A program made the translations under genes and the position numbers. A DNA stretch of 40,859 nucleotides, taken from a virus (lineage: Duplodnaviria; Heunggongvirae; Uroviricota; Caudoviricetes). Every line of letters begins with the position of its first letter. The stretch's first letter is position 1. The stretch lies in IMG/VR virus record IMGVR_UViG_2597489870_000008, one strand, 5' to 3'. Shown in pieces: positions 3,868 to 39,519 of this stretch. The notes beneath the pieces are model-generated. The model was not told where the DNA came from, ran no database searches, and saw only the letters and a program-made list of their open reading frames with translations.

Positions 3868-4215
3868 GCGGCGAAAAGGGATGTGGGTACAGGAGAAAAT
3901 CAGATACCGGATATGTCAGCCTGGAAAAGAAATCCGAGTTCTAATCGCTGGAGAAAATTGCCTGATGGAACCATCATTCAAATGGGAATATCAGCATCAG
4001 GGCCATTAGGCTCACCTGTAAATATCACCCTGCCGATATCTTTCAGCAATACCAATTATTGTGTTGTTGCATCGTACGATAATGCACGGTCAGGTGTGTC
4101 AACAATGGTTAGTTTTGCAGCGTTACCTGTTTCACCATCGCAATTTTCCCTGATGTCATCAGTGACTGAGCAAGGAATAAATCCTTTTGCTTACTGGATT
4201 GCTTTTGGAGATTAA
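3859..4215 (+). CDS. Alternative tail-fibre C-terminal variable segment (no start of its own; becomes fused to the constant N-terminus after inversion)
   Basis: Open frame begins exactly at the crossover site on a TTG codon (GLGE junction shared with the fibre gene); an inversion would join it in frame to the constant part at 6024..5735. Confidence 0.65.
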   Translation: MGEAAKRDVGTGENQIPDMSAWKRNPSSNRWRKLPDGTIIQMGISASGPLGSPVNITLPISFSNTNYCVVASYDNARSGVSTMVSFAALPVSPSQFSLMSSVTEQGINPFAYWIAFGD

Positions 4216-4218
4216 TAA

Positions 4219-4638
4219 ATGGACAGATACTTCTATTCACAAAAAGAAAATGGTTTTTTTACCGATTTAAATAAAGCACCTTCAGATGCTGTTGAGATAA
4301 CCACGGATGAATGGCTGTCACTACTGGATGGTCAGGATAATGGCATGAAAATAGTCAGCAATCAGGAGGGATATCCGGTTTTGACAGAGCAACCACCTTT
4401 ATCAAAAGAAAACCTTATTGCATTGGCAGAGTTGAAAAAAGGAAAACTTATTAATGAAGCCAACGAGCACATGAACAACAGGCAATGGCCTGGTAAAGCG
4501 GCGATTGGTCGCCTGAAAGGTGAGGAACTGGTGCAATATAATTTGTGGCTGGATTATCTGGACGCACTGGAACTGGTCGATACTTCCGGTGCGCCAGATA
4601 TTGAATGGCCTACGCCTCCGGCAGTTCAGGCCAGATGA
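4219..4638 (+). CDS. Tail-fibre assembly protein (alternative orientation)
   Basis: 139-aa ORF; the C-terminal DTSGAPDIEWPTPP motif is typical of Tfa proteins; directly downstream of the alternative fibre segment. Confidence 0.75.
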   Translation: MDRYFYSQKENGFFTDLNKAPSDAVEITTDEWLSLLDGQDNGMKIVSNQEGYPVLTEQPPLSKENLIALAELKKGKLINEANEHMNNRQWPGKAAIGRLKGEELVQYNLWLDYLDALELVDTSGAPDIEWPTPPAVQAR

Positions 4639-5203
4639 CGTCCGGCGCTGTGCTGGTATCTGTTGCCGTCACCGCGTCAATATAATCCAGCACAGCGTTA
4701 AGTCGGGTGTTTTCTGGCTGCGTCAGCTTCCGCCCGGCCTGTAATTTCAGTTGAATCAGACTGATGGAAGCCATTGCAGCATCAATCAGCGACTGGCGCT
4801 GTGCTTCTGCCGCTTCTACTGCGGCACCGTGTTGTGCCTCAGTATCTGTCACCCATTTCTCACCATCCCATTTATCATATGGCGTTAACGGTGAAAGCGT
4901 GACATAACCGTTTTTGATGGCACCGATATAATCCACTGTAACAGCTGCGCCATTTTCTGTTGAGTAAACAGTCTCATTGCGATGGTCTTCTTCATGGCTC
5001 CATCCCTTACCCGTAAATATTGCCACTCTTCCCGGAATGTATTCGCCCGGGTCAATACCAGTGGAACAGGCGGGCATACTTACGCCAGTATTAATATATT
5101 CATCAGACCAGCCCGTATATTCAGACGTTACTGCATCATAATAATAACAACGCATATCACCCGGTACTGTAGCCAGCCCATTTTCATCAAAAACAGGTTT
5201 CAT
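4610..5203 (-). CDS. Tail-fibre assembly protein (currently expressed orientation)
   Basis: 197-aa ORF starting [10 protein letters not shown] with C-terminal DTSTAPDVIWPELP; follows the tail-fibre gene and converges on the other tfa. Confidence 0.8.
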   Translation of the reverse strand: MKPVFDENGLATVPGDMRCYYYDAVTSEYTGWSDEYINTGVSMPACSTGIDPGEYIPGRVAIFTGKGWSHEEDHRNETVYSTENGAAVTVDYIGAIKNGYVTLSPLTPYDKWDGEKWVTDTEAQHGAAVEAAEAQRQSLIDAAMASISLIQLKLQAGRKLTQPENTRLNAVLDYIDAVTATDTSTAPDVIWPELPEA

Positions 5204-23864: not shown

Positions 23865-24185
23865 CTAAATCAGATCACCAATGTATTTTGCACTAATTGA
23901 AATTTGCATCTGAGGCATTCCGACCACAGATCCATTTAACAGGTAATCACGTCCTCGTTCCTGCAAAGAAAGACTCAATTCAAAGTTCTTTACCCCAGGG
24001 AAAACCGAGGTGACATTTAAATCATGCTGCGATACGCGCAGAATAAGTTGGCTACCGTCAATTTTTCCCTGATACGTAAAACCAAAATCTCCGCCGTTTA
24101 CTGCATTGTTTTTGACAACTACGGTACCATTACCAAAATCACGTTGATTGCTTCTGAAAACAACAAAATAGATACCATCTTTCAT
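23865..24185 (-). CDS. GrlR-like protein (moron between the lysis and packaging modules)
   Basis: 106-aa AT-rich ORF; its N-terminus MKDGIYFVVFRSN…GTVVVKNN…GGDFGFTYQGKI parallels GrlR (MKDGIYSIIFISN…GILIKNG…GGD…YQG); identity rests on recalled sequence. Confidence 0.5.
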   Translation of the reverse strand: MKDGIYFVVFRSNQRDFGNGTVVVKNNAVNGGDFGFTYQGKIDGSQLILRVSQHDLNVTSVFPGVKNFELSLSLQERGRDYLLNGSVVGMPQMQISISAKYIGDLI

Positions 24186-29168: not shown

Positions 29169-29558
29169 TCAGGCGGCTGCACCCGCCGTTTTCTCGTACT
29201 TACTGATAGTGATCTCGACCTTCCCTTCCGGGATAACCGGTCCCCACTCCACCAGCATTCTTTTCACCTGGCTGTCGTCTTCCCACACACCCGCGTGGGT
29301 CAGGGCGTCAAACAGCGCCTTGTTATAGTTGTCCAGATCGCGGATCCGGTTATCCGGAGGAAACAACACGATCTCCACTGAAGCAGGTGCCGACGTTGGT
29401 TTTGGCAGACGACGTAACTGCTCAACTATTGCTGCACACGCCGCGCTCTGGAATTTGCGCCCCGCCGCGCTTATCAGGCTCTTACCTGCAAACGCCCCTT
29501 TGTTGGGGTGTCGCCAGTACGTGTTCACGCTGGGCGGAAAAGGCAGTATTAGCTTCAT
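29169..29558 (-). CDS. rusA: Holliday junction resolvase RusA
   Basis: 129-aa ORF starting MKLILPFPPSVNTYW… with the acidic catalytic region DLDNYNKALFDAL. Confidence 0.85.
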   Translation of the reverse strand: MKLILPFPPSVNTYWRHPNKGAFAGKSLISAAGRKFQSAACAAIVEQLRRLPKPTSAPASVEIVLFPPDNRIRDLDNYNKALFDALTHAGVWEDDSQVKRMLVEWGPVIPEGKVEITISKYEKTAGAAA

Positions 29559-29881
29559 ACTTTCAGCTCCCTCTCATGTAACCAGTGGGCTGCACGCAGC
29601 CTGGCGTTTTCCTCACCGGCAAGCAGTGAGCGGATAATCCCGACCGCCTCGCTGTCGTCGTCCTTCACCGCGGTATGAAGCGTGATGCCCCGGGCCACGC
29701 CACGCTTTATCGTGATGACGCCTTTTTTCTCCAGTGCGCGAAGATGCTCCACCGCTGCATTCACTGAACGGTATCCCAGCATGGTTGCCACCTCCTGATT
29801 GGTTGGCGGGAAACCACGTTCTTTCTGATAAGAAATCAGCATATCCAGCACCTGCTGCTGGCATTGAGTTAACGTCGTCAT
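29555..29881 (-). CDS. LexA N-terminal DNA-binding-domain protein (no peptidase domain)
   Basis: 108-aa ORF; MTTLTQCQQQVLDMLISYQKERGFPPTNQEVATMLGYRSVNAAVEHLRALEKKGVITI aligns by eye with the LexA N-terminal domain ([58 protein letters not shown]). Confidence 0.65.
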   Translation of the reverse strand: MTTLTQCQQQVLDMLISYQKERGFPPTNQEVATMLGYRSVNAAVEHLRALEKKGVITIKRGVARGITLHTAVKDDDSEAVGIIRSLLAGEENARLRAAHWLHERELKV

Positions 29882-30531
29882 GCCGCCATCTCCCTGACCA
29901 GTTTTTCCGCCTGCTGGCGAACCTGCGCCAGAAACGCCTCACCACATGCCTCAAGTTCATCGCGCCCGATGTAGCTGATTGCCGGTCCCTTCCAGGTCTT
30001 GTCAAAAACAGCAATAGCACCAGCGAAAAAAGCTCCTGTCGGTACCTGCTTCTCGTCTTTCGGGATAAACCAGACAGGCAGTTCAAAACCAATACGCCCG
30101 CGAATAAAAGCAATATGATCTGCATCTTCCGGCCACCACACTTCGCTGGTGGCAGCTTTGATCAGGAAAACATAGCGCCCGCCCTTATCACGCATGGCAC
30201 TGGCATGTTTCATGATGTAACGCATGCCGGTGATGTATTGCCCCTCATGCTGACTGGCGCGGCTGTATGGGGGATTACCAAAGGCAGCACCTTTAAGCTC
30301 CGCAAGACGTTCTGACCAGTCATGCGCCAGCGCGTTGTCTTCCGCCGTGTAATACGCGGCACATTTGGCGTTATCACCGTCAGTGAACAGATCCAGAACA
30401 AACGGGCCAAACAGGGTGTTAATTCCCCAGAAAATGTTGTCCGGCGTGCGCCACTGATCGCCCACTTCCTTCAGTTCATGGGCTGGTTTGTTCCGCAGTT
30501 CCACCAGCGCCTGGCAATATTTATTACTCAT
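29878..30531 (-). CDS. Phage N6-adenine DNA methyltransferase (Dam-like)
   Basis: ORF with the NPPY motif (AFGNPPYSRA) characteristic of amino-methyltransferases; start at the Met at 30531 overlapping the upstream stop. Confidence 0.75.
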   Translation of the reverse strand: MSNKYCQALVELRNKPAHELKEVGDQWRTPDNIFWGINTLFGPFVLDLFTDGDNAKCAAYYTAEDNALAHDWSERLAELKGAAFGNPPYSRASQHEGQYITGMRYIMKHASAMRDKGGRYVFLIKAATSEVWWPEDADHIAFIRGRIGFELPVWFIPKDEKQVPTGAFFAGAIAVFDKTWKGPAISYIGRDELEACGEAFLAQVRQQAEKLVREMAA

Positions 30532-31025
30532 TAAGCCCCCACGTAATTCCCTGACAGATACCACTCTTCACCCGATGCAGCGCGCTTGCTGCTTTTCCGT
30601 AAGCACCGCTCACGACGCGCCAGAAAATTGTTTCGTTCTGGCTGGGAGTGGCTTTCACGGAATGCCGCCATCCACACGGTTGCAGCACGACGGTATAAGC
30701 CCCTGGACTCCAGTTCTTCCGCCTGGCGGGTCAGGCACAAAATCACACGGGGATCGTTAGTGCCGACATAGAAATTGCGCACAGATCTGGTTTCACGAAC
30801 TGGTTGTGGTTCCGGTTCCTGCGCTCTCTCAGTCAGGCGCGGGAAATGTCTGCGTGTATCTCCTTCACAACGGTGAGCCACACGCCCACTCTGACGTAAC
30901 TTGCTTGCTGACTGCAGAACGCGCTGCCGTGAGTAACCGGCAAAAGCATCCGCAATATCTCCGGAAGTACAGCCCGGATGGGCTTCAATGAATTTCTGAA
31001 CGTCATTCAAAAGACTCATGCTCAC
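30531..31025 (-). CDS. Regulatory protein with a PerC/Pch-like C-terminal region
   Basis: 164-aa ORF; C-terminal AEELESRGLYRRAATVWMAAF…RRERCLRKS matches the PerC-family signature as I recall it. Confidence 0.45.
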   Translation of the reverse strand: MSMSLLNDVQKFIEAHPGCTSGDIADAFAGYSRQRVLQSASKLRQSGRVAHRCEGDTRRHFPRLTERAQEPEPQPVRETRSVRNFYVGTNDPRVILCLTRQAEELESRGLYRRAATVWMAAFRESHSQPERNNFLARRERCLRKSSKRAASGEEWYLSGNYVGA

Positions 31026-31963
31026 CCCCTGAATCCTGCCGGGATCTGGCTGTAGTCCACGTTGTCGTAACTGGCTTTGAAGTACGGGTCTTCGCGTTTT
31101 TCGGTGTACGTGCTGACGGACGGCGATAAGCGCAGGGAAAGCTCATCCCATTTTTCCCGCAGCTTCGACGGGCTGAGCACGTTACGGCACCAGAACGGAT
31201 CGCGACTGACGCGGCTGTACATCTCGCAGATTTGTTTATGAGTACGACCATCCTGCACACACATCAGGCGAATTTCGTTTGCCCAGGCTGTCCAGTTCGG
31301 TTCTTTGGGACGAACCACCTCGCCGTCACATTCGGCGGCCTGCTCGTACAGGGCGATGATTTTTTTCCAGAGCCACTGTGCGCAGGTCAAATTATCCTGC
31401 GTTCCCCACTGGCGCTTTTTAGGGCTGAATACAACCGCATCAGGATGGCGAGTTAAAAACTCCTGTTCAGCCGTCTGCGTGTCCGGTTGCGAAGCGTCCG
31501 GACGAGAAGTTTTTTTATCTGACGGATCATGTTTTGATTTTACTGACGGATCCCCGCCAGATTCTGACGGGTGAAAACCCGCTTTTTTGCCAGATTTCGA
31601 CGCATCAAATTTTGACGGGTCAGATTTTGATGCGTCAGATTTTGACGGGTCAGAATCTGACAGTTGAGAAAATGCCGCTGCCTGAAGCTTCGCAACGTTA
31701 AGCTGATAAACATTCGACGCATTGCGGTTACCCTGGCGACGCGCCTTACGCGTTAACCAGCCTTCTGCTTCCAGCCGTGCGATAGCCGTTCTGACGGTAC
31801 TCATTCCCGCGCTAATCTGGCGGGCAATGGTTTCAATTGATGGCCAACACACACCTTCGTCATTACTGAAATCAGCCAGGCGGGCCATAATTGCCACGCT
31901 GGATAACTTCATGCCTGACGCAGCGCAACCATCCCATACATAGCCGGTTAATTTAGTGCTCAT
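31022..31963 (-). CDS. Replication initiation protein (O-like replisome organiser) with an internal iteron-encoded repeat
   Basis: 313-aa ORF with an N-terminal winged-helix region (…ETIARQISAGMSTVRTAIARLEAEGWL…) and a central SDSDPSKSDASKSDPSKFDASKSG repeat encoded by DNA iterons; GAGG RBS. Confidence 0.75.
   Translation of the reverse strand: MSTKLTGYVWDGCAASGMKLSSVAIMARLADFSNDEGVCWPSIETIARQISAGMSTVRTAIARLEAEGWLTRKARRQGNRNASNVYQLNVAKLQAAAFSQLSDSDPSKSDASKSDPSKFDASKSGKKAGFHPSESGGDPSVKSKHDPSDKKTSRPDASQPDTQTAEQEFLTRHPDAVVFSPKKRQWGTQDNLTCAQWLWKKIIALYEQAAECDGEVVRPKEPNWTAWANEIRLMCVQDGRTHKQICEMYSRVSRDPFWCRNVLSPSKLREKWDELSLRLSPSVSTYTEKREDPYFKASYDNVDYSQIPAGFRG
31516..31663. repeat. Iteron array (about 8 copies of a roughly 15-bp CAGATTTTGACGGGT-like motif); candidate replication origin within the initiator gene
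   Basis: Tandem degenerate direct repeats visible in the DNA (…cagattctgacgggtg…caaattttgacgggtcagattttgatgcgtcagattttgacgggtcagaatctgacag). Confidence 0.55.
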
Positions 31964-33148: not shown

Positions 33149-33178
33149 AATGTAGGATATCCAACATGTCAATGTCAA
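33149..33178 (-). promoter_or_regulatory. PR-like promoter (TTGACA-N18-TACATT on the minus strand) overlapping an 18-bp operator ATGTAGGATATCCAACAT
   Basis: The -35 and -10 hexamers lie on the minus strand with the palindromic operator at 33150-33167 across the -10; the same module recurs inverted downstream of cI. Confidence 0.5.
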
Positions 33179-37974: not shown

Positions 37975-38000
37975 TTTTCCCGGGTGCAGCCGGTTTTGAT

Positions 38001-38292
38001 GGAGAAAATTATGAACACCTTGTTTTTACTGATGGCTGAATTCAATACCTCAAACATTGAACTCTCAGCAGTTAGCCAAAAGTACTTTGGTATGAGTCCA
38101 GCCACAGCAGAAGCAAAAGCAAACGCTTGTAAGTTGCCTGTTCCTACATATCGCATTGGCACATCACAAAAAGCAAAACGTTGCATCAATATTCAGGATC
38201 TTGCGGAATACATAGATAAAAGACGAGAAGAAGGACGTATCGAGTGGGAACGGGTCAGAACAGACAAACAGAAGAGCAAAGAACATCACTAA
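38001..38292 (+). CDS. PrtN/AlpA-like small DNA-binding regulator (excisionase-like)
   Basis: MNTLFLLMAEFNTSNIELSAVSQKYFGMSPATAEAKANACKLPVPTYRIG…NIQDLAEYIDKRREEGRIEW resembles pyocin-activator PrtN-type proteins; GGAG RBS. Confidence 0.55.
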
Positions 38293-38484: not shown

Positions 38485-39519
38485 TCAGAAAAATATTTCA
38501 GCTTTTTTACCATCAAATACCCACTCGCTGGATAAGATTTTCATATTGCTAGCATAATTAAAAGTAAATTCTATCATTATCTTTTGTTTATCATTCGGAT
38601 AGTCGAAAACCTCTAATAAAAAGAAATCTCCTATAATCGAATAACAATGTATGCAACAGTTAGATAAATAACAATCACTGTCTCTGTCCTTAACAGTACC
38701 AATTCCAGCCGCCCAGAGTTTTTTGTTATCCACGTGAGTGGCTATTAGTTCTTTGACATCAGAATCACGAAAAGATAAAAACTTGACGAATACGGACTTA
38801 CTGTAAACAGAAATACCTCTGATAATTCCAGTTCGTTTCTTACATCTCCAGCATTTTGTAACTCGCGATTCTATTTTTGCAGTCAGCACATCCCCAACCT
38901 TTGGGAACCATAATAGCTTTCTGGCAAAAACACCCGCGATAAACTCCCTGACACTAATCCCAAACTGTGGTAGATACAAGTCCCCATTTTCATTCTGACG
39001 CACACCAAAAACAGGTAAATCGTAGCTATGGTATATATTCCCACCATGCTCTTTACTTCCTTTACGTAACTTTCGCAACCACAGTGCACGGACTCCTGAT
39101 GCGATATATCGTTTTTGACGTTCTTTAAATTCATCGTCTTTTTGCGGTGATAACTGTACTTCGAAAACCAGTTTCGCGTTATTTCTGGTACAAAACACAT
39201 CGGCAATCCATTGTTCTCCTGCTGGGGTCGCCCCTTGTTTTTCGGTAGTAACTGACCAGCCAGCATCACTGGCTAATTTTGCGATTAAGAATTTGAGATA
39301 TAAATGTTCTGCGCTTTCTTTCGCATACAGGCAATCGCTTTTGGATTTATGTGCAAAGTAATAGTTATTAAGTTTGCTTGTTTTAGGTATACCAGGCTGA
39401 CCACAGCACGACATAAACAAAGACTGGCTTTTATATGTCTGTTTAAGATATTCCCATTCCTGAGAGTTAAATTCAAAAGAATGAATTTCTTTTCCGTTAA
39501 GTGACGCTTTTAGTGGCAT
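38485..39519 (-). CDS. CoiA-like (competence protein CoiA family) putative nuclease
   Basis: 344-aa AT-rich ORF; N-terminal CCGQPGI…NYYFAHKSKSDCLYAKESAEHLYLKF fits the CoiA signature (Cys pair, FAH, ESxEH) as I recall it. Confidence 0.55.
   Translation of the reverse strand: MPLKASLNGKEIHSFEFNSQEWEYLKQTYKSQSLFMSCCGQPGIPKTSKLNNYYFAHKSKSDCLYAKESAEHLYLKFLIAKLASDAGWSVTTEKQGATPAGEQWIADVFCTRNNAKLVFEVQLSPQKDDEFKERQKRYIASGVRALWLRKLRKGSKEHGGNIYHSYDLPVFGVRQNENGDLYLPQFGISVREFIAGVFARKLLWFPKVGDVLTAKIESRVTKCWRCKKRTGIIRGISVYSKSVFVKFLSFRDSDVKELIATHVDNKKLWAAGIGTVKDRDSDCYLSNCCIHCYSIIGDFFLLEVFDYPNDKQKIMIEFTFNYASNMKILSSEWVFDGKKAEIFF

Follow-up and report, generated by a model that had tools for sequence, protein, structure and literature searches.

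A PerC-family relative with a predicted winged helix encoded by yfdN in the early operon of a lambdoid prophage

What does a PerC-like segment do in a protein encoded next to the replication gene of a prophage, and does it make that protein a regulator of ler? The question is raised by a gene at positions 30531–31025 (minus strand) of a virus sequence of 40,859 nucleotides (Caudoviricetes; IMG/VR record IMGVR_UViG_2597489870_000008), which as a whole is referred to here as the window. A first-pass annotation, made from the sequence of the window, had placed the gene in a nin-like region, likened the C-terminal segment of its product to PerC-family activators, and suggested that the prophage, which also carries a GrlR-like gene, may cross-talk with ler and the enterocyte effacement locus (LEE). 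In RefSeq the product is WP_077634920.1, a “PerC family transcriptional regulator” of 164 amino acids (aa) when counted from a GTG at 31025; residues are numbered below according to a 162-aa product that starts at an ATG at 31019. The 6-kb stretch around the gene was 100% identical to the chromosome of enterotoxigenic Escherichia coli (ETEC) H10407 (NC_017633.1), and the gene itself had 97.0% DNA identity to yfdN of K-12 MG1655 over 100% of its length. By this identity, the element is an SfV/SfII-type lambdoid prophage of ETEC H10407 and the gene is its yfdN; that the product belongs to the YfdN/PerC family is almost certain.

The peptide to which the first-pass annotation had drawn attention (AEELESRGLYRRAATVWMAAF...RRERCLRKS) corresponds to YfdN residues 100–143. 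A hidden Markov model search matched Pfam PerC (PF06069) to residues 98–149 (30573–30728) with 36.1 bits (E = 7.8e-9), above the gathering cut-off of 22.6 bits. Using BLASTP, YfdN was aligned without gaps to PerC of enteropathogenic E. coli (EPEC; sequence from pMAR2) with 37% identity over 46 residues (E = 1e-6), and to PchA of enterohaemorrhagic E. coli (EHEC; sequence from prophage Sp4 of strain Sakai) with 41% identity over 44 residues (E = 1e-7). When a profile of 30 YfdN-family sequences was compared with a PerC/Pch-type profile using hhalign, the probability was 98.9% (E = 1.1e-17). All 10 columns that are invariant in PerC/Pch (A8, L11, E12, G15, R18, R19, A20, A21, W24 and C47) were present in YfdN, where their counterparts are A100, L103, E104, G107, R110, R111, A112, A113, W116 and C139. 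The resemblance to the PerC family was thus borne out by all three methods and, on these alignments, the C-terminal segment of YfdN is a true homologue of the N-terminal half of PerC/Pch. PerC of the EPEC plasmid pEAF and PchA/B/C of EHEC prophages have in common with YfdN a core of approximately 50 residues, A-x-x-LE-x-x-G-[LF]-[YW]-RRAA-x-x-W ... R-x-x-C, and their genes, like yfdN, are located on mobile elements.

The match to Pfam PerC was confined to profile positions 5–56 of 90 and so fell short of the whole domain, whereas PerC and PchA spanned positions 1–89 with 143 and 149 bits, respectively. The second half of PerC/PchA (IKQ...MG...FRxYK) was missing from YfdN. PerC and PchA are single-domain proteins of 89–104 aa, whereas the 162-aa YfdN has an additional winged helix, a linker and a conserved tail of its own; furthermore, pchA is a late-region moron in Sp4, located after Q and tRNAs, whereas yfdN is an early-operon gene. 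YfdN is therefore a PerC-family relative, not a PerC/Pch orthologue. Two distant relatives, P0175 and P0155, also scored above the Pfam PerC cut-off over a similar region (profile positions 6–55). A homologue search with EPEC PerC returned three near-identical matches only and no Pch sequences.

YfdN consists of two domains joined by a disordered linker. In the AlphaFold2 model, the N-terminal residues 1–60 (30840–31019, minus strand) form a winged helix-turn-helix, with helices at residues 3–13, 19–25 and 31–44 and a β-hairpin at 47–60; the predicted local distance difference test score (pLDDT) was 84–92 per 10-residue block. Foldseek searches of the Protein Data Bank (PDB) matched this region to the DNA-binding domains of MarR/ArsR/SmtB/BlaI proteins, with MepR, SmtB, BlaI and SlyA among the named matches (prob 1.0, root-mean-square deviation 2–3 Å over ~60 residues). 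The linker (residues 61–88; 30756–30839, minus strand) is rich in Pro and Glu, poorly conserved and predicted to be disordered (pLDDT <50 for residues 63–84), and its length and sequence vary across the family alignments. It is followed by a PerC/ANR-like three-helix domain (residues 89–148; 30576–30755, minus strand) with helices at residues 90–105, 109–122 and 126–148, and structure comparison of the model assigned this module to the tetratricopeptide repeat (TPR)-like fold, i.e. a protein-interaction fold. The protein ends with a C-terminal tail (EEWYLSGNYVGA; 30534–30575, minus strand), which is predicted to be disordered and is conserved in the family alignments with the consensus LAGxYxG. 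The last codons of this tail carry the Shine–Dalgarno sequence of the following gene, dam; conservation of the tail as a by-product of this overlap was rejected, because the tail was also kept where the downstream gene was an unrelated methylase or a LexA-like gene. When the full-length model was submitted to Foldseek, matches were obtained to the winged helix alone. A PDB sequence search gave nothing relevant (the best match was a ClpC N-domain, E = 0.63), and PADLOC reported no defence-system match, a GajB tail at E = 0.004 being noise.

The C-terminal module also resembles the ANR family (Aar, Cnr and Rnr), with which YfdN shares three predicted helices and the residues A, E, A, W and A on helices 1 and 2. 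The ANR signature comprises A10, E14, A22, W26, A29, W43 and R47 (PMC4983702). Its first five residues were found in YfdN at the right spacing (A100, E104, A112, W116 and A119), W43 was replaced by F132/L133, and the R-to-C spacing was 3, not 4. The R-x-x-C arrangement is that of PerC, whereas ANR has R-x-x-x-C. ANRs are single-domain proteins of about 7 kDa (<10 kDa) that lack a DNA-binding domain and are usually encoded beside an AraC-family gene, whereas YfdN has two domains. By analogy, the ANR-type and YfdN modules plausibly share the same protein-binding way of working.

A HMMER search run exhaustively over 1.84 billion representative sequences gave 99 matches, approximately 25 of which were full-length two-domain relatives with 25–50% identity to YfdN. 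Alignment of these relatives showed that the winged helix, the PerC core and the LAGxYxG tail are all kept, and that L103, R111, A112 and C139 are invariant. Further arrangements of the same parts were observed. Plasmid p108_MLI108-3 (NZ_CP117002.1; 2501–3463 of the retrieved locus) carries a stand-alone 99-aa PerC-family gene directly upstream of a MarR-family gene, a single case of the two domain types fused in YfdN occurring as a pair. Protein P0202 (462 aa) contains the motif ELEARGFFADAKSAW about six times in tandem, and in P0185 (214 aa) a sub-threshold PerC match comes after a pair of winged helices; as read from their sequences, these are other architectures around the same helix-turn motif. 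On an IMG/VR phage contig (L058, 4001–4466), a frameshift divides a yfdN homologue into ORFs of 108 and 61 aa, which fits the presence in PHROGs of separate families, one sort restricted to the N-terminal half and the other to the C-terminal half. P0170, used as a single query, retrieved no related loci among viral contigs.

Two lines of published work provide an analogy for the function of such a protein. Pch activates LEE1 only when LEE1 is silenced by H-NS, StpA and Hha (PMC4764244), and Aar, which has no DNA-binding domain, binds AggR and H-NS directly (PMC5570504). On this analogy we postulate, with about even confidence, that YfdN is a DNA-tethered modulator or counter-silencer of nucleoid-protein or regulator activity. 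The winged helix would place YfdN on DNA, and the PerC/ANR-like TPR-like module would act by protein–protein contacts, as ANRs do with H-NS and AraC-type activators. The outcome would be a loosening of H-NS/StpA-type silencing, as for Pch, or an otherwise changed transcription at phage or host promoters, and YfdN would act once the early operon of the prophage is on.

Several observations weigh against a DNA-tethered counter-silencer. The Foldseek E-values for the winged helix were weak (0.05–0.2), MarR-type models matched the domain only weakly and below threshold, and none of the Pfam helix-turn-helix models passed for YfdN, while its relative P0185 did pass Pfam MarR_2; DNA binding by the predicted winged helix is thus deduced from the fold alone. 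The three-helix TPR-like fold is generic, and the NCBIfam ANR model (NF033650) gave 23.6 bits, below its cut-off of 32. The link of YfdN to H-NS and AraC-type regulators is drawn by analogy, and Fukui et al. could not co-precipitate H-NS with PchA (PMC4764244). A role in transcription alone does not account for the fixed position of yfdN behind a replication initiator. Finally, our literature search yielded no experiment on the activity of YfdN, which has surfaced in screens alone, through a glycogen phenotype when over-expressed, its induction by nitric oxide and a urine-induced fragment.

Three other explanations were considered, two of which also make YfdN a regulator. In one, YfdN would be a Pch-like activator of ler/LEE1 and, together with the GrlR-like gene, would connect the prophage to LEE, as the first-pass annotation had proposed. 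The homology to the PerC/PchA core is genuine, near-identical copies of yfdN occur in Stx2/Stx2c phages of LEE-positive O157:H7, and Uhlich et al. judged it prudent to delete yfdN, in their words “the K12 unique PerC homologue”, as a precaution before ler::lacZ assays, the effect of the deletion not being reported (PMC5931665). The GrlR-like gene is present as well: a 106-aa ORF between the lysis and terminase regions (23865–24185, minus strand) showed 29% identity to Sakai GrlR over 109 aa (tblastn against the window, E = 2e-12), and Pfam GrlR matched it over its full length with 26.7 bits, just below the cut-off of 26.8. The LEE/GrlA partner of this ORF is absent from H10407. We searched for LEE in the host strain by appending a 3.5-kb piece of the Sakai LEE1 operon (including ler and its promoter) to the 6-kb prophage query. 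This chimeric query detected no LEE1/ler DNA in H10407, where the number of matching places stayed at exactly three, as for the prophage part by itself, whereas the total number of places rose from 4076 to 4748 and LEE-positive controls gained a match; a type III secretion system is likewise not encoded by H10407 (PMC5471185). Because LEE1/ler is not there, YfdN cannot act on ler in this strain. Nor does the missing IKQ...MG...FRxYK half, or the early-operon location so different from that of the late-region moron pchA, favour a Pch-like activity, and yfdN was found in 2547 of 5426 complete E. coli genomes (47%, counting matches at >= 80% gene coverage), most of them LEE-negative and K-12 among them. 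PerC-like proteins outside group 1 do not activate LEE: PchD and PchE have little effect on it (PMC6265319), and the PerC-like proteins of phage-inducible chromosomal islands (PICIs) have no effect on LEE1, except for one that represses it (PMC11773190). These PICI proteins (EcCIMP1_025, EcCICFT073 and EcCIEDL933) are PerC-annotated products of phage-related elements, and they do not act by activating ler; they are likened to YfdN by annotation only, and they belong to PICIs, whereas yfdN is an early-operon gene of a lambdoid prophage. The PerC-family label does not predict ler activation. With the host lacking LEE, half of the PerC domain missing and the family label a poor predictor, the proposed cross-talk with ler was not upheld, and we regard a ler-activating YfdN as highly improbable. 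Alternatively, YfdN could be a pure ANR-like anti-activator, in which the C-terminal module sequesters an AraC-family activator (Rns/CfaD in ETEC) or H-NS without DNA binding, and the N-terminal domain serves dimerisation or stability only. The partial signature and the sub-threshold ANR match are consistent with this, ANRs, which work by binding to proteins, show promiscuity towards AraC partners, among them Rns (PMC4983702), and a PerC-annotated PICI protein acts as a repressor (PMC11773190). The failure of the ANR model to reach its cut-off, the PerC-like R-x-x-C spacing and the small, single-domain build of ANRs argue in the other direction, and conservation of the winged helix throughout the family suggests that this domain has a specific function. 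An anti-activator of this type is rather unlikely.

The remaining explanation takes YfdN out of transcription altogether. Located at the position that P occupies in lambda, it would be the partner of the O-like initiator, for example as a bridge from O to the host DnaB/DnaC or through an action at the origin that lies within the O gene; the first-pass annotation had itself mentioned a conserved replication or helicase-loader component as the finding that would speak against its proposal. The positional part of this idea stood. The yfdN gene followed an O-like gene, with stop and start overlapping, in the window and in all eight examined loci of distant homologues (30–38% identity), across three O types. 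In its C-terminal domain the O-like protein is homologous to lambda O, and it is this domain of lambda O that binds P. Conserved C-terminal tails are found on both the O-like protein and YfdN, and no P, DnaC-like or DnaB-like gene was found among the window ORFs scanned. The part concerning a loader did not stand: YfdN showed no sequence or fold likeness to lambda P, DnaC/DnaI, DciA or G39P, its matches being to PerC, ANR and winged-helix proteins only, and no helicase-loader match to YfdN was obtained in Pfam, NCBIfam or PHROGs. Two phages with the same O type (70–72% identity over the full length), vB_EcoS-716R3 of Escherichia and Kp4871-1 of Klebsiella, continue from O directly to dam-rusA-DUF968-Q, and a search of their ORFs downstream of O with the YfdN family profile revealed no homologue. 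In Yersinia phage YeP1 the yfdN slot is taken by an unrelated gene of 156 aa, and one YfdN subtype is paired with two O types (loci L036 and L041). Helicase-loader identity, raised by gene position, was therefore down-weighted in view of the phages that have the same O type and no yfdN, and a role for YfdN as replication partner is distinctly unlikely. Because these phages go straight from O to dam, yfdN is, by comparison of the loci, an accessory insertion at the O/nin junction. Lambda P and Ren resemble yfdN in position, since they too stand directly behind an O-type initiator in the pR operon. No credible homology links P to YfdN, and yfdN is dispensable in related phages; for Ren, a very weak PHROG match of the YfdN N-terminal domain to a “Ren-like exclusion protein” was recorded (E = 0.005).

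An AGGGGG Shine–Dalgarno sequence lies at 31030–31025, 5 nt before the yfdN ATG at 31017–31019 (minus strand), and homologues with identities down to 25% begin with MSL or MSI at this position; on the basis of this spacing and these starts, the ATG is a likelier start than the GTG. The O-like gene upstream ends in a TGA that overlaps this Shine–Dalgarno sequence, and the TAA stop of yfdN (30531–30533, minus strand) overlaps the ATG of dam (TAATG). Given these overlaps on both sides, yfdN is, by its sequence, translationally coupled to both flanking genes. The O-like replication initiator (31022–31963, minus strand) has an HTH_36/DnaD_N N-terminus and a lambda O-type C-terminal domain, with 34% identity to lambda O over residues 131–277 (E = 1e-17). 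The downstream gene (29878–30532, minus strand, coordinates taken from the RefSeq start MSNKYCQ...) encodes a phage N6-adenine methyltransferase (Dam; TIGR01712, 9.2e-77; also Pfam Dam). A pR-like sigma-70 promoter upstream of cro (TTGACA-18-TACATT; 33149–33178, minus strand), found by consensus scan only, probably drives the operon that includes yfdN. The gene order is cro, ymfL (cII-like), DUF4222, O, yfdN, dam, lexA-DBD (LexA DNA-binding domain), rusA, kilA-N, DUF968 and Q. This places yfdN in the early rightward operon directly after the O-like gene and ahead of the nin-like genes, in agreement with the first-pass description of a prophage gene in a nin-like region.

Other features of this operon and of the opposite arm were observed. 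Within the O-like gene (~31530–31720), repeated GATTTTGACGGGTCAGA-like DNA units encode the peptide repeats SDxSKSD/PSKFD, and by analogy with lambda they look like origin iterons. For the O-like initiator (window; loci L061 and L063), a lambda-O-like C-terminal domain stands beside the absence of any P, DnaC-like or DnaB-like gene from the window ORFs scanned, and related phages pass directly from O to dam. Three otherwise different O-like proteins (31025–31060 in the window; loci L007, L012 and L041) share at their ends a similar motif, F-K-[AST]-S-[FY]-x-x-[TV]-D-[YF]-S-x-[IG]-x-x-G-F-R-G; the DNA encoding this motif overlaps the ribosome-binding site of yfdN, and the motif may represent either a docking peptide or a recombination linker that joins modules. 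The lexA-DBD gene (29555–29881, minus strand) encodes a 108-aa protein that consists of the LexA DNA-binding domain alone, without the peptidase domain (Pfam LexA_DNA_bind, 2.9e-19; LexA residues 1–91). It adjoins rusA in all related loci, and from its sequence the product could bind SOS boxes while not being cleavable. A 344-aa ORF (38485–39519, minus strand) at the far end of the early-left arm has CoiA nuclease-like domains (Pfam CoiA_nuc, 7.4e-10) and adjoins a PrtN-type (pyocin activator/excisionase-like) gene at 37984–38292.

YfdN is widespread among related phages. Protein identity was 94–99% to SfV orf40 and to the corresponding genes of SfII, SfIV, mEp460 and many Stx2/Stx2c phages, and 68% to sb43 of ST64B; the protein matched PHROG 1324 with E = 4.8e-79. 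YfdN of K-12 (CPS-53/KpLE1), SfV orf40 and Salmonella ST64B Sb43 are the same gene with the same RefSeq name. In K-12 the neighbours are as in the window, with O-like/yfdO upstream and dam/yfdM downstream, and yfdP, yfdQ and yfdR are also within the window. The H10407 prophage looks complete, whereas CPS-53 of K-12 is a remnant; otherwise there is no difference of substance. Three places on the H10407 chromosome (NC_017633.1/NZ_CP007594.1) matched the 495-bp yfdN, indicating that this strain carries several SfV-like early regions.

As it stands, the significance of the assignment is small: it was already public through the PerC-family name that RefSeq gives this exact protein and through the literature on K-12 yfdN, and the gene occurs in about half of the complete E. 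coli genomes, K-12 included. What the analysis adds are corrections, namely that the PerC label rests on half a domain, that the host has no LEE, and that membership of the PerC family has repeatedly been no guide to ler activation. A broader idea, which we consider improbable, is that the YfdN family represents a class of DNA-tethered PerC/ANR modules that is widespread. Its winged helix would target a TPR-like module, itself a binder of H-NS or AraC-type regulators, to specific sites, so that silenced genes of the host or the phage would be re-programmed when the early operon of a prophage is switched on. Alternatively, the constant site of yfdN behind the O gene could mean a coupling of origin firing to a local relief of silencing. 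If the broader idea were true, the targets of YfdN in H10407, with its three yfdN copies, could include the Rns/CfaD virulence regulon. How Pch works has been described as unsolved (PMC4764244), and if YfdN does act as a counter-silencer, yfdN would offer a cheap entry, testable in K-12, to the working of the PerC/Pch/ANR module.
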